Shown: positions 1,771-57,592 of the stretch, in pieces
How positions within the stretch are numbered: position 1 is the stretch's first letter
Layout of the letters: each line of letters opens with the position of its first letter
Source: Candidatus Colwellbacteria bacterium
GTDB lineage: Bacteria > Patescibacteriota > Minisyncoccia > UBA6257 > Colwellbacteraceae
Assembly: GCA_016176505.1 (NCBI GenBank)
Contig: JACOXB010000006.1
Span: forward strand, 7,240 to 71,239
Length of the DNA stretch: 64,000 nucleotides
Direction of reading: 5' to 3'
Position numbers and translations under genes: made by a program
The notes under the pieces: model-generated
Database searches by the model: none
Seen by the model: only the letters and a program-made list of their open reading frames with translations
Told to the model about the DNA's origin: nothing

Positions 1771-2997
1771 ATGCCTTTTAGATTCAGACCTCCTAAAATT
1801 AGACGCCCCAGAATCTTTAAGCGGAAAGGGGTCGGAAAGCCCGAGATTATTATTGGCATTCCCTCTTATAATGAAGCCGAGAATATCGGTATTTTAACCC
1901 AGATTCTTGACCAAGGGTTGATTAGGTATTTTCCTAATAAACGAGCGCTTATTATAAATGTTGACAATAACTCTTCTGATGGTACTAAAAAGGCCTTTCT
2001 CTCAACTAAAACTAAAACCCCCAAGCGTTACATTAGTACCGCGCCCGGAGTTAAAGGCAAGGGGCGGAATATTAAAAACCTTCTTGAATATTTTTTGAAT
2101 ACTGAATCAGCCGCGGCTCTGATGACGATTGACGCCGATGTTACGGCGGTTGATCCGAAGTGGGTTAAAAATCTTTTAACGCCAATTTTTAAAGGGTTCG
2201 ACCACTGCTTGCCGATTTACCGAAGGAGCGAAGATGATGGTTCGATTACCAACCACTTAGCTTATCCGATTGTTCGCGGTATTTTGGGCGTGGAAATCCG
2301 TCAGCCCATCAGCGGCCAGACCGCTCTTTCGCGTAAAGCGGCGGACCGGATTTACAACCGCCCTTGGCCGAACTGCGCTTACGGCTTTGGCATCGATGCC
2401 CTAATGACTTTGAGCAGCGTTTTTGGCGAGCTAAAGTTGTGTCAGGCGTATCTCGGAACAATTCACCACAAGCCGGTTAAGTTAGAGGACCCATTACTCT
2501 TTAACGAAGTGGCGGCTAGTCTCTTTAGTCTATTAAACGTTCAAAAACAGCTTTGGCAATGGTCAACCCCAATGAGGGTTCGGAGGCCGCCCGTTTTTTT
2601 CGAGGCTAATCACGGGAGCGAGGCGCCTAAAATGGGCATCGCCTACCGTGAATTAAAGGAAATTGTACTAGCCGAGTTTAGTAAGTATAGAAAAGAGATT
2701 GAGGCAATTGTCGGGAAGGATGTCTTTGGTTATCTTTCCCAGAATTTTGGAAAGGGCGGCGATTTAAACATAGATGCCGAACATTGGGCTGCGATTTTGA
2801 GTTGTTTTATTAAAAACTCAAGAACTCATCATCTAAAACGAGCTAAATTCTTAAGGCCGCTTTACCTGGGTCGTTTTCTCACTTTTTATAAAGATTCACT
2901 CGATAAATCGAGAGAAAGAATTGAAGAGGCGATTCTGGCTCAGGCCGCTCTCATCTTTAAGGAGAGAAAGAAATTTATTGATTTCCCTAAAGTTTAA
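1771..2997 (+). CDS. Family 2-like glycosyltransferase
   Basis: IIIGIPSYNEAENIG N-terminal GT-A signature and a DADV (DxD) motif. Confidence 0.55.
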   Translation: MPFRFRPPKIRRPRIFKRKGVGKPEIIIGIPSYNEAENIGILTQILDQGLIRYFPNKRALIINVDNNSSDGTKKAFLSTKTKTPKRYISTAPGVKGKGRNIKNLLEYFLNTESAAALMTIDADVTAVDPKWVKNLLTPIFKGFDHCLPIYRRSEDDGSITNHLAYPIVRGILGVEIRQPISGQTALSRKAADRIYNRPWPNCAYGFGIDALMTLSSVFGELKLCQAYLGTIHHKPVKLEDPLLFNEVAASLFSLLNVQKQLWQWSTPMRVRRPPVFFEANHGSEAPKMGIAYRELKEIVLAEFSKYRKEIEAIVGKDVFGYLSQNFGKGGDLNIDAEHWAAILSCFIKNSRTHHLKRAKFLRPLYLGRFLTFYKDSLDKSRERIEEAILAQAALIFKERKKFIDFPKV

Positions 2998-3021
2998 AAG
3001 GTCGAGTCGATTATTAATTCA

Positions 3022-3444
3022 ATGAAGAAAGAAAATACTTTAATTGTTTCTGCTCTGCTTGTCATTGTTCTGGGTTTGGCTTGGTATCTTTGGTTCGGCG
3101 GCAAGGACGTGGTAAATGCGGATAAGGTCTCGGCGGTTGACCAGGCCGCTACCGATCGAATTACGGTTGAGAGCGTCAATCTTAAAGAGCCAGGCTATGT
3201 GGCGATTTACGCTGATAGCGGCGGCATGCCGGGTGAAATGCTCGGCAACGGCGAACTTTTGGTCGGTCGGCACAAAGATGTAGTTGTTTTTTTGAAGCGA
3301 GAAGCGAAGCAGGGTGAGACGCTTTACGTGATTCTTCACCGAGATGATGGTGATGGCGGATTTGAGTTTCCGGGTCAAGATGCGCCGGTAACTGACGAAA
3401 CCAGTCGAATAATTCTTGATTCCTTTGTTGTTTTAGAGAGCTAA
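3022..3444 (+). CDS. Membrane-anchored hypothetical protein
   Basis: N-terminal TM helix and coherent ORF. The antisense ORF 3040..3378 is judged spurious. Confidence 0.45.
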   Translation: MKKENTLIVSALLVIVLGLAWYLWFGGKDVVNADKVSAVDQAATDRITVESVNLKEPGYVAIYADSGGMPGEMLGNGELLVGRHKDVVVFLKREAKQGETLYVILHRDDGDGGFEFPGQDAPVTDETSRIILDSFVVLES

Positions 3445-3489
3445 AACGAAAGGTCGGGCGAATTCGAGATTGATTAAAGAATTAAATCA

Positions 3490-15713: not shown

Positions 15714-15784
15714 CTGCCGGGCAGGGATTCGAACCCCGATACTCAGGTCCAAAACCTGATGTCCTACCATTAGACGACCCGGCA
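15714..15784 (-). tRNA. tRNA-Gln (anticodon TTG)
   Basis: Minus-strand cloverleaf. Acceptor TGCCGGG/CCCGGCA, anticodon stem TCAGG/CCTGA with loop TTTTGGA, T-arm GGGGTTCGAATCCCT. No CCA encoded. Confidence 0.8.
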
Positions 15785-34173: not shown

Positions 34174-34347
34174 ATGGTAAAGAAACCTCATATCCGAAAA
34201 CTCACCCGCATGGGCGGCGGCCGCTCGCTCGGTCTCGTCCTCCCCGCCGATTTAGTCCGCGACCTCAACTGGCGCGAACGCCAAAAAGTCGTGGTCAAGA
34301 AGGTCGGGAAAAGGATAGTCGTCGAGGATTGGCCAGTTCGAGAGTGA
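34174..34347 (+). CDS. AbrB/MazE/SpoVT-family small DNA-binding protein (57 aa)
   Basis: MVKKPHIRKLTRMGGGRSLGLVLPADLVRDLNW... has a swapped-hairpin-like core. About 60% GC. Not in the ORF track (shorter than 60 aa). Immediately upstream of the methyltransferase. Confidence 0.45.
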   Translation: MVKKPHIRKLTRMGGGRSLGLVLPADLVRDLNWRERQKVVVKKVGKRIVVEDWPVRE

Positions 34348-34359
34348 GGGGGTAATTTC

Positions 34360-35313
34360 ATGAAAAAACCATCATCAAATAAAAGCCTACATAAAGCAAA
34401 AGATATCAAGAATGATGAATTTTATACTCGTTTTGATGATATTCAGGCAGAACTAAATTTTTATAAAGACCAGTTTAAAGGCAAAGTAATTTACTGTAAT
34501 TGCGATGATCCGGCCGAAAGCGCCTTCATTGATTTTTTCAAATTGAATTTCGATTACTTAGGTATTAAAAAGTTAATTGGTACTCGCTATCAAAAATCAA
34601 ACCTCTTTTTGTTTGCCGACCCTGCTAGACGGAACGGTTATAGGTTAGAAATAACAGCGAAAAATAAAGACGACAAAAAACCCGTCAAAATAAATTTGAA
34701 AGGAGACGGTGACTTTCGTTCGCCGGAATGCATTGAGTTATTAGAAGAGGCGGACATTGTTATTACTAACCCGCCGTTTTCACTGTTTCGTGAATATGTC
34801 GCTCAATTGATGAAATACAATAAAAAGTTTTTGATAATTGGAAACGATAACGCCATTAAATATAAAGGGATTTTTGAGCTAATAAAAGAAAATAAAGTAT
34901 GGCTTGGTTACACTAGAGCTAAGGAGTTTTATAGACCAGACGGCTCAACACAAAAATTTGGCAATGTTGGTTGGTATACTAATTTAGATGTTAAAAAGCG
35001 ACATGAAGAGTTGTTTTTGTATAAAACATACAAAGACAATAAAAAAGATTACCCAAAATATGATAATTATGACGCAATTGAAGTCTCAAGAATAAAGAAC
35101 ATACCAATGGATTATGAAGGATCAATGGGTGTTCCAATTACTTTCTTAAACAAGCACAACCCTGGGCAATTTGATATTATTGATCTACTAAATAGATATA
35201 CCTTGCTTGATACGCAAAAGACAAATGAAGATGTTAGAGCAAGACATTCCCACACTTGTAATATAAACGGTAAGGCCGTCTATTCTAGGATCGTGATTAA
35301 AAGAAAAAAATAA
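34360..35313 (+). CDS. EcoRI-family N6-adenine DNA methyltransferase (M.EcoRI-like)
   Basis: Collinear with M.EcoRI as I recall it: KSLHKAKDIKNDEFYT, VIYCNCDDP, NPPFSLFREY, FLIIGN, YPKYDNYDAI, MGVPITFL. About 33% GC, well below the window average. Confidence 0.8.
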   Translation: MKKPSSNKSLHKAKDIKNDEFYTRFDDIQAELNFYKDQFKGKVIYCNCDDPAESAFIDFFKLNFDYLGIKKLIGTRYQKSNLFLFADPARRNGYRLEITAKNKDDKKPVKINLKGDGDFRSPECIELLEEADIVITNPPFSLFREYVAQLMKYNKKFLIIGNDNAIKYKGIFELIKENKVWLGYTRAKEFYRPDGSTQKFGNVGWYTNLDVKKRHEELFLYKTYKDNKKDYPKYDNYDAIEVSRIKNIPMDYEGSMGVPITFLNKHNPGQFDIIDLLNRYTLLDTQKTNEDVRARHSHTCNINGKAVYSRIVIKRKK

Positions 35314-35316
35314 ACT

Positions 35317-36426
35317 ATGGATACGATACATCAACGAATAAAAGTAAAAGATGTTTTTAATGGCTACCTAGATAAAGATTGGGACGGCGTTGTCGGTTAT
35401 GGCGGAAAATTAGATATTCGCCCAATTTACCAGCGTGAGTTTATCTACAACCCAGAAAATGAGCGAGCGGTTATAGACACAATTTTGAAGGAGCATCCGC
35501 TAAATCTGATGTATTGGGTCAAAAATAAGAACCACAATTTTGAATTATTGGATGGGCAACAGCGAACCTTGTCAATTTGCCGTTTTCTTGATCATAAATA
35601 TCACATTGAACTCAACGGAGAAAAAAGATATTGTGATACATTATTGAAGGAAGATTTGGATAAAATAAAAAATTACGAACTAGATGTCTATATTTGCGAA
35701 GGAAAAGAAAAAGAAATTTTAGAATGGTTTAAAACCATAAATATTAAAGGTAAAGAATTAAACCCTCAAGAATTATTAAACGCCACTCATACAGGAACTT
35801 GGCTTACCGACGCAAAAAGGTATTTTAGCAAGCCAAATTGTGCCGCCAAGGGTTTGGGAGAAGATTATATTAACGCAAGCGTGGAACGACAGGAATTTTT
35901 AGAAACCGCTTTGAAATGGATAAACAATGGAGACGCGCAAGGTTATATGGCGATTCACAGAAACGACGCGAACGCAAAAGAACTACAAGATTATTTTGCT
36001 AATGTAATTAAATGGATTAAAAAAACTTTTACTACCCATCGCAGAGAAATGAAAAATGTGAACTGGGGCGAGCTATATAATCAATTCAAGGATGTGAAGC
36101 TTGATGCCGGTAAATTGGAGAAAGAAATTGCCAAACTGATGGAGGACGAAGAAATTGGTGATCAAAAAGGAATTTATGATTATGTCTTGACGAGAAATGA
36201 GCGAAGCTTGAATCTGCGAACTTTTGACGAAAAAACCAAACGCCGAACTTACGAAAAACAAAAAGGAATTTGTCCACATTGTAAGGGAGAGAATAAGAAA
36301 AAGAAATGGAAATTTGAGGAAATGGAAGGTGATCATAAAAAACTTTGGAGCGAGGGAGGAAAAACAATCCCAGAAAATTGCCAAATGTTATGCAAGGACT
36401 GTCATCGAGAAAAATCTGGAAAATAA
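35317..36426 (+). CDS. DUF262 (DGQQR, ParB-like) plus C-terminal HNH nuclease fusion; GmrSD-like type IV restriction candidate
   Basis: LLDGQQRTL motif at the N-terminus. C-terminal CPHCKG ... GDHKKLWSEGG ... NCQMLCKDCHREK is a canonical HNH. AT-rich like the MTase, 4 bp downstream of it. Confidence 0.7.
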   Translation: MDTIHQRIKVKDVFNGYLDKDWDGVVGYGGKLDIRPIYQREFIYNPENERAVIDTILKEHPLNLMYWVKNKNHNFELLDGQQRTLSICRFLDHKYHIELNGEKRYCDTLLKEDLDKIKNYELDVYICEGKEKEILEWFKTINIKGKELNPQELLNATHTGTWLTDAKRYFSKPNCAAKGLGEDYINASVERQEFLETALKWINNGDAQGYMAIHRNDANAKELQDYFANVIKWIKKTFTTHRREMKNVNWGELYNQFKDVKLDAGKLEKEIAKLMEDEEIGDQKGIYDYVLTRNERSLNLRTFDEKTKRRTYEKQKGICPHCKGENKKKKWKFEEMEGDHKKLWSEGGKTIPENCQMLCKDCHREKSGK

Positions 36427-36516
36427 TACGAACGGGGGAGATAGTAAGGGAGATTAAAATTGTTGAGAGCGGGTCAGATTGATGGGGGAAGAGGTAGGGT
36501 TTAGAATAAGGTCATC

Positions 36517-37542
36517 ATGGAACGCAAAACATTAATTCAACAAATAGAGGGATTAAGGAGCTCCAAGGTAATCACTTATATCACTAGCGATCGGCAGGGG
36601 CCGGTGAGCGCTAAAGTGGCTATGGATATCATTCCCGTCATGAGCCGACAGCTTCGAGATATCGGAAAAACCGAAAACATCGATTTATTTCTTTATAGTA
36701 CGGGGGGAGATACTATGGTGCCGTGGCGTTTGGTCTCTATGGTCAGGGAATACTGCGAGAAGTTTTCCGTACTAATACCATACAAAGCCCATAGTGCGGC
36801 AACTATGATTGCGCTCGGGGCGGATGAAGTAGTGATGAGCGATCTCTCTGAGCTGTCACCGATCGATCCGTCAACGGCAAACGTTTTTAACCCAATCGAT
36901 CCAAAAAATCCGCAGAATAGAGTTGCCATCTCCGTCGAAGACGTAATGGCCTATTTCGATCTAGTTAAAAACAAATTTGGGGTGAAAAACGACGAGGACC
37001 TCACTAAAGTCTTCGTAAAGTTTATCGAGTCGAACCCTCAGATTCACCCTCTAGCACTAGGTAACGTAAATCGTATCCATAATTTAATTCGTATTCTTGC
37101 GCAGAGGCTTCTAAAAAGCCACAGGTCGCCCATGAAAGAGGAAGAAATAAATAAAGTGGTTGATTACTTTACGGAAAAACTTTACTCACACCAATACTTT
37201 ATCGGTCGCAAAGAAGCCAAAGAAGATCTGGGGCTAAAAACGGTAGTTTTTGCTGATAGCGCACTTTCTAAAGCGATGACCGATCTTTACGGAGAATATG
37301 AGAAAGAAATGGAACTCGGTGTAATATGGAATCCGGAAAATGAGCTCGGCCTAAACGCTGCACAGAATAGAAAAACATATAAGATTGCCTTTATTGAGGG
37401 CAACCAACCCTCGAATTATTTTGAACTTGAAGTCGAATATCGCAGGCAGCAGATGAATGTAGCCCAACAAACTCCTCAAGGCTCGATCCAGGTTCCGCAA
37501 GAACAGGTTATTTGGCGGGTTGTCGGCCAGGGGTGGAGATAA
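36517..37542 (+). CDS. ClpP-fold serine protease (SDH / S49-like family)
   Basis: LFLYSTGGDTMVPWRL ... YKAHSAATMIALGADEV aligns with the ClpP/S49 oxyanion and catalytic-Ser regions. Confidence 0.55.
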   Translation: MERKTLIQQIEGLRSSKVITYITSDRQGPVSAKVAMDIIPVMSRQLRDIGKTENIDLFLYSTGGDTMVPWRLVSMVREYCEKFSVLIPYKAHSAATMIALGADEVVMSDLSELSPIDPSTANVFNPIDPKNPQNRVAISVEDVMAYFDLVKNKFGVKNDEDLTKVFVKFIESNPQIHPLALGNVNRIHNLIRILAQRLLKSHRSPMKEEEINKVVDYFTEKLYSHQYFIGRKEAKEDLGLKTVVFADSALSKAMTDLYGEYEKEMELGVIWNPENELGLNAAQNRKTYKIAFIEGNQPSNYFELEVEYRRQQMNVAQQTPQGSIQVPQEQVIWRVVGQGWR

Positions 37543-37551
37543 GGAATACCT

Positions 37552-37974
37552 ATGTCGACCATTAAACCAAAAATAAATTACGCCTTTCTATGTGATTATG
37601 CCTTTATTAGTGGGGGCGATAAGTTAAATATTATCGGGATTTTTAAAAACATAAACACGCAGAATCTTCCAGCTCAACACCCTTTGATGTTTGTGGTTAC
37701 TAGTATAGCCGTGGCGACTAAGGGTAACTTTAAAGTAAATATCAAATTTGTTCGCCGGCTAGATAATGTGGAGATAATCCCGCCCCTAGATTTCGATATT
37801 TCCATGGTTTCAGATGAGGGATCTAGAGAGGGGGAACTTGGCGTAATAGGTCAAATTGCAAATCTAAAATTCGAGGAAGCCGGGATGTACGATGTCCTAG
37901 TTCTTGTTAACGGAGAGAACATAGGAAGTTTGCCTCTCCAAGTACTCCATTTAAAGAAAAATGCCGCGAAATAA
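37552..37974 (+). CDS. Hypothetical 140-aa protein (second gene of the protease operon)
   Basis: 10-bp spacing from the protease gene; soluble; no family recognised. Confidence 0.4.
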   Translation: MSTIKPKINYAFLCDYAFISGGDKLNIIGIFKNINTQNLPAQHPLMFVVTSIAVATKGNFKVNIKFVRRLDNVEIIPPLDFDISMVSDEGSREGELGVIGQIANLKFEEAGMYDVLVLVNGENIGSLPLQVLHLKKNAAK

Positions 37975-38344
37975 AAAAGCGGAGAAGCCGAAATCATCAT
38001 TTCAATTTCTGGCAACAGAGAGTGAGTCGACTGGTGATATAACGCCGCTGGAAAAACGAGTAAGTCCTATCGAGATCAGGGTTGGGCAACTCGAGGTAAA
38101 ACTAGAGGCGCTAGAAGAACGACTGAAAGGCGAACGAGCTCTAAAATTATGGGTGATAGGTACCGTACTAGCGATTGTTGCAGGCATTTTCGGGGCCCTT
38201 ACGATATACATCAATTTAACCAAAGATTCACAGGACTCATACCGAGAGCTTCAGAATAATTATTACGAGAAACTACTGGAGCTAAGGAAAGATATTTTAT
38301 CAGAGAAAAACGCTAGCTCTCAACCACCTCAAAGCGCTAAGTGA
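37961..38344 (+). CDS. Coiled-coil protein with one TM helix (127 aa)
   Basis: Overlaps the previous gene by 14 nt; heptad region then a TM segment. Confidence 0.4.
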   Translation: MPRNKKAEKPKSSFQFLATESESTGDITPLEKRVSPIEIRVGQLEVKLEALEERLKGERALKLWVIGTVLAIVAGIFGALTIYINLTKDSQDSYRELQNNYYEKLLELRKDILSEKNASSQPPQSAK

Positions 38345-38388
38345 GCAGGATCCTCGGACAGCCGTAATTTAATTGAGAAATAAAATTT

Positions 38389-38955
38389 ATGGATAATTTC
38401 GAATTTTTTATTAGGAATACTTCTATAAATATAAGAGAGCTTAGGGATAAAATCGGTAAGTCGTTGCTCGATCTTAGAGTAGATAATATTAAACAAATCA
38501 GAGAACTTATTAAGCAGTTTATTATAATTTCCGGTGCGATTATCGGTTTCACGATACCGGTGTTTGGAAGAACTAAACTTATCAGAACGCCAGTATTTCT
38601 TACCGGTGGACTAATAGAGCTGTTAATCGTCATGGTGTATGCCTTTTATTACCTGATGCATATTTTAGAGAGCGAAAATCAAAAGTTAGGAGAACAGCAC
38701 GAACGTTATAATAAGATTATTGATAGCCTAAGAGATAATCTGATTATTTTTGCCACGAGCGATAAGACCGAGAAAGACGCACAAAAGCAACTTGACTCCG
38801 ATAAACAAGTGTTGGATGAATTTCTATCCGAAGAGGCGGGCGACAAGGGTAATAAGAAAGATTACGCCTTAAATATTATTTTTTCTGCGTTTTTGGTCGG
38901 ACTCGTATTGATAATCTTATCAATGATAAATTTTCAGAATTTAATTTCGGATTAG
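38389..38955 (+). CDS. Three-TM membrane protein (188 aa)
   Basis: AT-rich; hydrophobic helices at roughly 55-75, 85-110 and 165-185; charged coiled-coil middle region. Confidence 0.4.
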   Translation: MDNFEFFIRNTSINIRELRDKIGKSLLDLRVDNIKQIRELIKQFIIISGAIIGFTIPVFGRTKLIRTPVFLTGGLIELLIVMVYAFYYLMHILESENQKLGEQHERYNKIIDSLRDNLIIFATSDKTEKDAQKQLDSDKQVLDEFLSEEAGDKGNKKDYALNIIFSAFLVGLVLIILSMINFQNLISD

Positions 38956-39031: not shown

Positions 39032-39072
39032 ACAGATATTATAACATTCTGCAGAATGTTATAATGTTCTAT
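39032..39072. repeat. AT-rich palindrome family P, copy 3
   Basis: acagatattataacattctg cagaatgttataatgttctat. Confidence 0.6.
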
Positions 39073-39121: not shown

Positions 39122-39559
39122 ATGAGATGGAGCGGGAATAGGGATTTATCAAAATGGTTTATTCCCTTTATGGCTTTGTGGGGGATTTTCTTTGGCGAGT
39201 TCTTGCCGGTGTGCTTGGAGAATAGTTTTAACTGTTTCCCCAAAACAACGCCGCCAGGCGCCAAAGAGTCAATGTTCTCCGGCCTTGATATGTTCATCCC
39301 AACCGTAGTGATTTATTTTATTCTGGCTACGGTTTTCTGGTGGCTCTATCGAAAACTAGATTGGAAAATAGTCTTTGTTATAGCGATTGTGGTCGGTCAG
39401 GTTCTGGAGTTTGCCTTCTTTAGGCCCCAAGAGGGAGACGGCGTAAATGTGGTTGATAATCCGCTCTACTCATTCTTATTTTTCTTAATCATCTGGCCAA
39501 TTCTACTCGTAGCGCCATATGGCATTTTCCAGAAATTCTTTGCCAAGAAGAAGAAATAA
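39122..39559 (+). CDS. Membrane protein (hypothetical)
   Basis: 145 aa with 4 TM helices. Confidence 0.4.
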   Translation: MRWSGNRDLSKWFIPFMALWGIFFGEFLPVCLENSFNCFPKTTPPGAKESMFSGLDMFIPTVVIYFILATVFWWLYRKLDWKIVFVIAIVVGQVLEFAFFRPQEGDGVNVVDNPLYSFLFFLIIWPILLVAPYGIFQKFFAKKKK

Positions 39560-39784: not shown

Positions 39785-40261
39785 ATGAAAGTTAATAGCT
39801 TTCTTAAATTACTTATCGCCATTAGTATCTCGGAATTCGCCGGAATCGTTGGCTCGTTTTTTACCGTTTCGGCAGTCCCGAACTGGTATGCCGCTCTCGA
39901 GAAACCAGTATTAAACCCGCCGAGCTGGATCTTCGGACCGGTTTGGATCATCCTCTACGCCTTAATGGGAGTTGCCGTATTTCTGGTCTGGGAGAAGGGC
40001 TGGAAGAAAAGAGAAGTTAAAAAGGCGCTTGGTGTATTTGGGATTCAGCTTTTCCTAAACGCTATCTGGTCAATCGTCTTTTTCGGTCTTCAAAATCCTT
40101 TTTGGGCTCTGATTAATATCGCCTTTCTTTGGCTCGCGATTATTTGGACAATATTTAAGTTTTATCCACTTTCGAAGCCGGCGTCATATCTACTCGCGCC
40201 CTATATCTTATGGGTTAGTTTCGCTGTATATTTAAACTACGCTATTTGGGCTCTAAATTAA
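39785..40261 (+). CDS. tspO: TspO/MBR tryptophan-rich sensory protein
   Basis: Five TM helices and a Trp-rich signature (NPPSWIFGPVWIILY). Confidence 0.75.
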   Translation: MKVNSFLKLLIAISISEFAGIVGSFFTVSAVPNWYAALEKPVLNPPSWIFGPVWIILYALMGVAVFLVWEKGWKKREVKKALGVFGIQLFLNAIWSIVFFGLQNPFWALINIAFLWLAIIWTIFKFYPLSKPASYLLAPYILWVSFAVYLNYAIWALN

Positions 40262-50234: not shown

Positions 50235-50305
50235 TGCGGGATCGTCTAATGGTAGGACGCCTGACTCTGGATCAGGTAATCTAGGTTCGAATCCTAGTCC
50301 CGCAG
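50235..50305 (+). tRNA. tRNA-Gln (anticodon CTG)
   Basis: Acceptor TGCGGGA/TCCCGCA, anticodon stem CCTGA/TCAGG with loop CTCTGGA, T-arm CTAGGTTCGAATCCTAG. Confidence 0.8.
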
Positions 50306-57169: not shown

Positions 57170-57201
57170 AAAAGGACCCCGACTATAGTCGGGGTCCTTT
57201 T
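57170..57201 (-). terminator. Terminator hairpin at the 3' end of rnpB
   Basis: aaaaggaccccgactatagtcggggtcctttt followed by a T-tract on the minus strand. Confidence 0.55.
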
Positions 57202-57202
57202 G

Positions 57203-57592
57203 TGGAGGCAATCCGTAAGCCGGATTCTGTCGAGGACAGTAATTTATCTAGCTCTTCGATCGCTCTCAGAGTCAAGCGGCACTATCCGACCGAAGTCGGA
57301 CCACGGCCTTGCACTCGGGTAAGGTTTTAGCCGTTTCACTCCAGTCTTTTTATCCCTATAACTGGATTAGGCCGTCTACGTTGGGATCGGGCCTGTCCGA
57401 CCCTTGCAAGTCGGACCGTCACTGTTCGCACCTCTATCCTTACGGACGACGGGCATTACCCGCTACCTTTCTCCGACTATAGTCGGAGTGAGTGTCCGGA
57501 CTTTCCTCCCCATCCTCGAGCTCTAAGGTAAAGAACGATCTTTATCTGGGTTGGAGCTCGTTAGACAGAGCTACTGCCTGGATTACCTCCAG
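57203..57592 (-). ncRNA. rnpB: RNase P RNA (bacterial type A-like)
   Basis: Minus strand contains GGAGGAAAGTCCGGAC (CR-I / P4 5' strand) and GACAGAATCCGGCTTACGG (P4 3' strand / CR-V). P1 pairing is GGAGGTAATCC with GGATTGCCTCC. About 390 nt. Confidence 0.75.

Follow-up and report, generated by a model that had tools for sequence, protein, structure and literature searches.

What do the four closely packed forward-strand genes at positions 36517-38955 of a Candidatus Colwellbacteria contig (JACOXB010000006.1) encode, and do their products act together? The whole stretch of 64,000 nt that was analysed is called here the window. The initial annotation described a ClpP-fold serine protease gene followed by three genes for small proteins, and supposed that they are very likely co-transcribed. 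All four open reading frames (ORFs) were recovered. Gene A (36517-37542, 341 aa) codes for a cytoplasmic SDH-type Clp-fold serine protease, gene B (37552-37974, 140 aa) for a soluble all-beta protein of the DUF6941 family, gene C (37961-38344, 127 aa) for a bitopic coiled-coil membrane protein, and gene D (38389-38955, 188 aa) for a protein with three predicted transmembrane (TM) segments and a charged helical middle. Genes B and C overlap by 14 nt, as annotated before, while the A-B gap is 9 nt and not 10, and the C-D gap is 44 nt and not 45.

We favour, with slightly less than an even chance of being right, the view that this locus is a recurrent modular cassette for a protease-controlled membrane effector, located in a low-GC islet beside a restriction-modification (R-M) system and probably related to conflict. 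The protease gene is strongly conserved and heads cassettes that can be exchanged, and DUF6941 with a bitopic protein is a recurrent cassette of this kind, which pairs with other proteases too. Protein B and a small bitopic membrane protein with its N-terminus inside form a tight pair.

The strongest argument for such a joint function came from gene B. Its product was initially taken simply as a small soluble protein. It is indeed soluble, with no TM segment in the hydropathy scan, and its membership in DUF6941 (PF22091) had gone unrecognised: the match has E 3e-24 and 86.1 bits against a cutoff of 27 and spans profile positions 2-124 of 125. The same domain is carried by all gene B homologs that were recovered. 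A second set of DUF6941 genes was retrieved without reference to the protease, from 38 metagenomic loci and 10 context look-ups. In the short variants (about 124-135 aa, like B) the gene of a small TM protein lies 1-5 nt downstream or overlaps. A chambered protease is encoded not more than two genes upstream in 12 of 21 short-type loci. Nine of these 12 proteases are of the SDH type (L088, L098, L106, L114, L124, L126, L128, L134 and L135). Divergent ClpP-like proteins take this place in L085 and L091 (50-76 bits against ClpP cutoffs of 228-361), and in L081 the gene of a proteasome-beta/HslV-like N-terminal nucleophile (Ntn) protein, starting TTTPEGIVLAADSR, overlaps the DUF6941 gene by 8 nt. 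Three protease families, two Clp-fold types and the unrelated Ntn fold, thus occupy one slot, which argues for a joint function of protease, DUF6941 and membrane protein. The coupling of a protease to small membrane proteins, proposed from the beginning, gains support in this way for the A-B-C arrangement, not for D.

Could the ClpP-like neighbours be ordinary housekeeping clpP genes? We rejected this, since their scores lie far under the equivalog cutoffs and the gene of L091 sits inside an hsd operon. The order there is hsdM, DUF3800, then the ClpP-like, DUF6941 and TM genes, then hsdS; the three genes are nested in a type I R-M operon and do not stand next to clpX. The DUF6941 family has at least two contexts, as judged from its short paired and longer standalone variants. 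The longer ones (137-157 aa; L125, L127, L129, L130) come from bacteria outside the Candidate Phyla Radiation (CPR), e.g. Chthoniobacterales, and stand isolated among housekeeping genes, where neither a protease nor a TM partner accompanies them. In L135, a contig from Patescibacteria, two different SDH-type protease genes (183-1082, 299 aa, and 2465-3484, 339 aa) are 1.4 kb apart, and DUF6941 follows the second only.

The sequence of gene B is fast-evolving. In the syntenic locus L018, where gene A is 77% identical, gene B is only 30% identical. The AlphaFold2 (AF2) model of B is all-beta with 8 strands and is poor (predicted local distance difference test, pLDDT, 54). Foldseek against the PDB related this model to beta-sandwiches of a generic Ig-like kind (UNC119, RhoGDI, MD-1); most TM-scores were 0.3-0.5 and the best was 0.54, so the likeness of the modelled B to an Ig-like sandwich is a hint only.

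The soluble, one-TM and three-TM calls made initially for B, C and D agree with the hydropathy scan, which also finds no TM segment in A. In protein C a polar N-terminal tail is followed by a coiled coil, a single TM segment (residues 64-82) and a helix at the C-terminus; the predicted topology is N-in/C-out. The positive-inside rule supports the same orientation in 15 of 20 membrane partners of DUF6941; given this topology, their disordered tail and coiled coil would face the cytoplasm, where A and B are. A coiled-coil/TM protein follows DUF6941 in each of the eight protease loci that have DUF6941. Clear homologs of C stand after DUF6941 in L045, L081, L082 and L083 and share the motifs VGQLEV and KDSQxSYRxLQxxYY. 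The similarity of C to Pfam XhlA is below threshold (16.2 bits against 34.7, E 0.012), as is that of D to BhlA (15.9 bits against a cutoff of 22.6); phrog_1193 'hemolysin' matched C with E 3e-4, and spanin-like weak matches also occurred among C and D in the profile scans. The hhalign comparison of C with the c6 group of partners gave 38% probability, at which homology is not demonstrable.

A C-terminal tail with exactly two Cys residues was found in 7 of the 20 DUF6941 membrane partners, which also speaks for the C-out orientation. A conserved two-Cys C-terminal loop, such as C-x5-YW-x-Y-x2-C, occurs in many partners and links several partner groups; gene C of the window has no such loop. The loop presumably forms an extracytoplasmic disulfide. 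Partners that end in it are encoded at L045 7485-7901, L010 7432-7839, L018 7446-7988, L053 8666-9226, L100 1304-1675, L101 1349-1747, L114 5380-5751 and L128 3389-3811.

The TM segments of protein D were placed at residues 40-58, 65-83 and 162-180. The codon-position GC pattern of its gene is typical for coding sequence (GC 0.35). No significant match to D was found in the Pfam, PADLOC, NCBIfam or PHROG profile scans, and no relative in 118 loci (L001-L118) or in viral contigs. D is thus an ORFan, but an analogy exists in L007, L023, L083 and L100, where the DUF6941 partner is followed by a second or third small TM gene. The membership of D in the module is, on present analysis, uncertain, and we infer that D is a lineage-specific extra membrane protein and not a conserved component.

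The protease gene A passes the gathering score of PF01972, SDH-type ClpP-like proteinase, with 50.9 bits against 31.3 (E 1.5e-13). The match covers the N-terminal Clp core, profile positions 36-162 of 286. The equivalog cutoff of NCBIfam NF047768 (Clp_like_SDH) was missed (60.4 bits against 250; positions 23-147 of 260), and phrog_11747 matched with E 2e-37. Because the profile match is partial and the NCBIfam cutoff was missed, gene A represents a distinct clade inside the superfamily and not an equivalog. The GGD and AHSAAT motifs, already noticed in the initial annotation, are located at G63-G64-D65 and A91-H92-S93-A94-A95-T96. From position and conservation the triad is predicted as S93-D117-H225 and the oxyanion residues as G63-G64. 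In the alignment of 130 diverse representatives G63, G64 and S93 are conserved in 100% and D117 and H225 in 99%; the positions conserved in 94-100% are G63, G64, S93, D117, E141, G182, R186, H225 and W340. The Ser-Asp-His order which defines SDH-type enzymes is thus retained, so A is very probably an active protease, and its earlier placement among ClpP/S49-type serine proteases is borne out.

The structure prediction proposed in the initial annotation was done for A and B. In the AF2 model of A (pLDDT 67.7) a Clp-like N-domain is followed by a middle part of helices and by a C-terminal beta-hairpin domain, the last of which is predicted well. Foldseek against the PDB returned weak ClpP matches only, and a sequence search of PDB chains with A and B gave nothing useful. 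An exhaustive search found relatives of A in 3,591 cluster representatives at 50% identity; 435 of these clusters reached E<=1e-30 and are mostly full-length proteins of 330-400 aa. The C-terminal 220 residues, namely the helical region and the beta-hairpin domain ending with Trp340, define a separate clade of about 340-aa proteins. Within the helical region, residues 186-242 and 122-244 gave weak matches to the NCBIfam 'FFLEELY motif protein' (E 2e-4) and to a mid-segment of PADLOC Dsr1 (E 0.003).

If the protease gene heads a functional unit, then how constant are the genes that follow it? We compared 80 loci from named genomes, where the orthologs of gene A are 70-84% identical. These orthologs come from at least six phyla, with Patescibacteria, Omnitrophota, Nitrospirota, Bacteroidota, Smithella/Syntrophaceae and other Proteobacteria among them, and the best 120 database matches of gene A are all of about 341 aa and 77-84% identical. 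Among accessory genes seen across Patescibacteria, Omnitrophota, Nitrospirota and Desulfobacterota, the gene A family ranks with the most conserved. The four genes treated initially as a unit are not conserved as such: in the 80 loci A is followed by B in eight, by a homolog of C in one and by D in none.

Behind A the slot is filled by many unrelated gene clusters, and the first gene often overlaps A or starts a few bases off. A protein of about 200 aa with an N-terminal TM segment is encoded nearby in 14 loci, in about ten of them as the first gene. Other cassettes are a triad ending in a PIN protein, GNAT with isochorismatase, a Cys-rich protein, and many singletons. Profile-profile comparison detected no remote homology of DUF6941 to the other post-protease cassettes, or of these to each other, except a weak c32-c55 similarity. 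The triad (c9-c11-c12, coding for about 203 aa, about 92 aa and a PIN protein of 160-186 aa) was seen in L005, L006, L008, L066 and L075; it and the DUF6941 cassette take turns in the slot downstream of the protease. Its place in L066 and L075 is before the protease gene, preceded by a remnant of the protease 5'-end.

Such remnants were met in several loci. In five loci a remnant of the last 60-100 nt of the protease gene stands just before a second cassette, and three loci have remnants of its 5'-end; no protease-end remnant was found in the window. Their positions are L020 8274-8324, L026 5633-5697, L038 7158-7278, L053 8571-8666, L056 7726-7786, L042 4158-4232, L066 4217-4344 and L075 4067-4185. 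This arrangement suggests that protease and cassette recombined and were stacked as units. The remnants recall the orphan cassettes known from polymorphic-toxin loci. In some loci the protease gene has long perfect palindromes on its flanks: L031 (5519-5558, 5929-5956, 7106-7133), L010 (5911-5956) and L008 (5917-5948). That of L031, TTACCAATTCGYRCGAATTGGTAA, is present in three copies, and the palindrome sequences differ between loci; terminators, REP-like (repetitive extragenic palindromic) elements and operators are candidates for their nature.

A number of observations weigh against the favoured protease-controlled effector cassette, and they are gathered in this and the next two paragraphs. 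B follows the protease in only 10% of the ortholog loci, and elsewhere unrelated cassettes, or no co-directional neighbour, stand after it. The sequences of the protease do not cluster by cassette type in its tree, which argues against a specific protein-protein fit. The proteases of L008 and L010 are 97% identical and their cassettes are different; these two loci are syntenic at 70-77% DNA identity, and the homology is interrupted between the protease stop codon and uvrB. The non-SDH proteases before DUF6941 are known from three short metagenomic contigs only. Both AF2 models are weak. PADLOC-DB 2.0.0 gave no significant match for A-D; below significance there were the Dsr1 fragment in A and a 2TM effector for C (E 0.034), with nothing for B and D. 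Furthermore, tight same-strand packing is the rule in small Patescibacteria genomes, so that the packing of A-D is weak evidence for their co-transcription.

Some of these points speak for adjacency without functional coupling. Gene A would then be a single-gene unit and the DUF6941-TM pair (with D) a separate cassette of the same variable islet; recombination hot spots would juxtapose the cassettes, and co-transcription would be incidental. This explanation, which we consider unlikely, agrees with the heterogeneous slot after A, with the lack of co-variation between A and the type of cassette, and with about 15-20 loci where no co-directional neighbour lies within 150 bp of A. Between divergent loci the homology begins and ends at the borders of gene A, covering the protease gene and about 50 bp upstream. 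DUF6941-TM pairs without a nearby protease exist in L083, L100, L101 and L123. A distant homolog of A on the E. coli plasmid NZ_CP081704.1 (L121 2229-3224; 331 aa, 37% identity, annotated 'serine protease') is a solo gene on the opposite strand between the antiterminator Q gene and the holin gene of a lambdoid phage-plasmid, a classic moron slot. However, the two families are both rare, yet they are adjacent in about 10% of the A loci and in more than half of the short-type DUF6941 loci. Two other protease families occupy the same position upstream of DUF6941, and overlaps of start and stop codons and short gaps are frequent. These facts speak against mere adjacency.

The other group of contrary observations concerns conservation. 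An identity of 70-84% across phyla, as calculated for gene A, is not usual among immune genes and is seen more typically in housekeeping enzymes. Synonymous sites of the orthologs are saturated (proportion of synonymous differences, pS, 0.86-0.91) and nonsynonymous differences are few (pN 0.11-0.17), so the conservation of A reflects old, strong purifying selection and not recent transfer. In about ten Patescibacteria loci (L005, L019, L022, L030, L031, L040, L045, L051, L056, L072) the order is hrcA-grpE-[protease and cassette]-dnaK, all co-directional, and this placement could point to proteostasis. Is the locus, then, an accessory unit of proteostasis or regulated proteolysis? The membrane protein and DUF6941 would tether or regulate a chambered protease at the membrane, possibly under heat-shock control, in a role likened to that of NfeD-stomatin or FtsH-HflKC. 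Besides the selection on A and the grpE-dnaK loci, this proposal draws on the loose resemblance of protease, beta-rich domain and TM/coiled-coil protein to NfeD (S49 protease, TM, OB) with stomatin, and on the longer DUF6941 variants standing alone in housekeeping contexts. It agrees poorly with the patchy distribution, with two ortholog copies on different contigs in several metagenome-assembled genomes (JAJYYV, JAUSHZ, JBAYIQ, MHPJ), and with the low-GC, mosaic islets, where cassettes are shuffled, remnants of protease ends are left, and R-M, toxin-antitoxin and recombinase genes are frequent neighbours. Moreover, a CIRCE-like operator was not detected immediately before the protease gene, and B, C and D have no Pfam match to SPFH/Band_7 or to the NfeD OB domain at E<=0.1. 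We regard a proteostasis unit as unlikely, too. The widely conserved housekeeping unit which the initial annotation named as a contrary outcome was not found, although some loci do lie between grpE and dnaK and gene A is unusually conserved.

It is the genomic company of the locus that suggests a conflict role. Directly upstream of A a type II R-M system (34174-36426) lies on the same forward strand and includes an AbrB/MazE-like gene of 57 aa. Its EcoRI-type adenine methyltransferase (34360-35313; PADLOC MTase_II, 2e-114) and its GmrSD_N+HNH restriction enzyme (35317-36426; REase_II, 8e-112), both also forward, recur as a pair with the protease in L018, L039 and L072. The order in L018 is as in the window, methyltransferase, restriction enzyme, A, B and TM partner, with TspO further downstream. 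The islets are flanked by housekeeping genes such as uvrB/uvrA, ribonucleotide reductase and grpE/dnaK. A type III Mod gene was detected in 21 of the 80 protease loci, and several loci (L001, L006, L020, L027, L053, L134) share a frame of RadC, protease, one or more cassettes and type III Mod, to which Res is added downstream if the contig extends so far. Further islet genes code for PIN, Phd/YefM, AbiEii and large serine recombinases. Among 120 random neighbours there were 6 to 8 matches to DNA methyltransferase families, 3 to ResIII, 2 to AbiEii and 3 to resolvases. For the abortive-infection role proposed initially, the evidence is one of context only: R-M, RadC, toxin-antitoxin and recombinase neighbours, and the moron positions of distant phage homologs.

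The same initial annotation named scaffold or capsid fragments of a degraded prophage as a possible outcome, and no sign of such a relationship was found. The locus would in this case be a remnant of a head module: a prohead protease, a beta-rich decoration or scaffold protein (as in lambda C-Nu3-D) and lysis-like membrane proteins. Sub-threshold matches of A to head maturation proteases (ClpP-related NF045542, 35 bits where the cutoff is 120; head-protease families of PHROG, with 5e-8 as the best E) and the weak XhlA, BhlA and spanin-like matches of C and D may be cited for it. However, none of the window ORFs near A-D, of the identified neighbour clusters or of the 120 sampled neighbours of the 80 loci was recognised as a capsid, portal or terminase gene; the lack of capsid and portal genes beside the protease was noticed initially, too. 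In 2.9 million viral contigs close orthologs of A and gene D have no match and DUF6941 has a single weak one. Gene A is intact and under strong purifying selection, and a proteasome-like protease can take the same position. Distant homologs of A (24-37% identity) reside in accessory moron slots of temperate phages and of the E. coli phage-plasmid, not in head modules. With no head genes recognised nearby, no viral-contig relatives of A and D, and gene A intact, we rejected this explanation as essentially excluded. Accessory positions similar to that in the phage-plasmid were noted in the Klebsiella phage ST13-OXA48phi12.4, next to XRE/ImmA, and in the Gordonia phage BeeGee (gp31).

How is the locus transcribed? 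A sigma-70-like promoter-like site, TTGATG-17-TAGAAT, is located at 36479-36507 on the forward strand and ends 9 nt before the ATG of gene A, which implies, if it is used, a very short leader. Many ortholog loci have a similar promoter just before the ATG (TTGAAA...TAAAAT), and a TAnnAT-like -10 element lies within 24 nt of the protease ATG in 41 of 79 loci. A ribosome-binding site, AAGGA, precedes the start of gene B by 7 nt. The consensus terminator scan placed no terminator-like site between the genes; its sole forward-strand site within 36517-38955 is inside gene A (37394-37414). The promoter scan gave one weak promoter-like match inside gene D. A perfect AT-rich hairpin of 15 bp followed by a T-rich stretch (39036-39065, forward; dG -14.6 kcal/mol), 80 nt after D, is a candidate for the end of the transcription unit; the consensus scan missed it because the stem has no G-C pairs. 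With a promoter of its own and no intergenic terminator placed, the transcription of A-D as one unit, initially called very likely, seems plausible.

Genes A-D lie within a low-GC stretch (0.37-0.41, compared with about 0.46 elsewhere in the window), which begins with the R-M system and is of mosaic composition: GC is 0.33-0.36 in the R-M genes, 0.35 in D, 0.39 in B and 0.44 in A and C. After the hairpin there is an ORF of 145 aa with four TM segments and no family match (39122-39559), followed by a TspO/MBR-like gene (39785-40261); TspO also flanks the syntenic island of L018. The window contains class A RNase P RNA (57200-57590, reverse) and two tRNA genes (15714-15784, reverse; 50235-50305, forward). 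None of them is adjacent to the island, so its borders have no tRNA-type integration site.

How could the favoured protease-effector cassette work? The SDH-type protease A, with its own promoter, would head a transcription unit continued by the DUF6941 beta-sandwich B and one or more small membrane proteins (C and probably D). The cytoplasmic protease would cleave, or be gated by, DUF6941 and the cytoplasmic N-terminal tail and coiled coil of the membrane protein. In this way a membrane-acting, holin-like effector would be turned on or off by proteolysis, and this switch may serve inter-genomic conflict, for instance by backing up the neighbouring R-M system with abortive infection. A bolder proposal, which we hold to be doubtful, is that of a new family of R-M-associated abortive-infection systems, where an interchangeable chambered protease controls a DUF6941 'holder' and a bitopic protein and so releases or activates a holin-like effector. 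More broadly, the SDH-type protease of about 340 aa would act there as a universal trigger heading swappable unrelated effector cassettes.

If the coupling is true, it would give the first functional handle on DUF6941. It would also mean a new logic of protease-gated membrane effectors in which the protease is replaced by non-homologous ones. Literature searches gave no mention of DUF6941/PF22091 and no function for this protease clade in searchable papers. To our knowledge, the phage biology of ultra-small CPR bacteria is almost unknown, and the cassette would join the very few candidate immune modules listed for them. Patescibacteria-specific defence genes of unknown fold, LdgA and DdgA/Dallas, were reported in a functional-metagenomics study of 2025 (PMC12366544). 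At 2.4 kb, the cassette studied here is small and lends itself to direct tests in E. coli.

It is useful to compare this cassette with systems already known. With the SDH-type ClpP-like proteinases (PF01972/NF047768; MEROPS S49-like Clp fold) A shares the Clp core, the GG oxyanion motif, the Ser nucleophile and the Ser-Asp-His order, but it aligns with the first half of the profile only and has its own C-terminal 220 residues. NfeD (1510-N type S49) with stomatin/SPFH also couples a Clp-fold protease to a beta-rich domain and a coiled-coil membrane protein, and there the protease cleaves its membrane partner. In contrast, A has no TM segment, no OB or SPFH/Band_7 domain was detected in B, C and D, no SPFH/Band_7 partner gene (as was noticed initially for stomatin) occurs near A-D or among the recurrent neighbour clusters examined, and the partners are far smaller, fast-evolving and exchangeable; they are found in R-M islets, whereas NfeD-stomatin is a conserved housekeeping pair. 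Protein C resembles the phage lysis-associated proteins XhlA/BhlA in its size and in an N-terminal coiled coil followed by a single TM segment. It scores below threshold, lacks an endolysin or phage context, and belongs to a group with its own KDSQxSYRxLQxxYY motif and an optional C-terminal Cys loop.

Two defence systems come near in their organisation. In bacterial gasdermin loci, as here, a protease gene stands beside the gene of a putative membrane-acting small protein in a defence-island context, and the type of protease is swappable between loci. No gasdermin-like domain is present in our cassette; DUF6941, a soluble protein, has half the size of a gasdermin, and a second, bitopic protein supplies the membrane component. 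PrrC in the EcoprrI hsd operon is an anticodon nuclease, unlike the protease and membrane proteins described above, and the adjacency of the latter to R-M genes may reflect island clustering. The likeness to PrrC is that of an accessory module inside or next to an R-M system, as in L091, in the window (methyltransferase, restriction enzyme, A, B, C and D) and in the many loci where a cassette is followed by Mod and Res.

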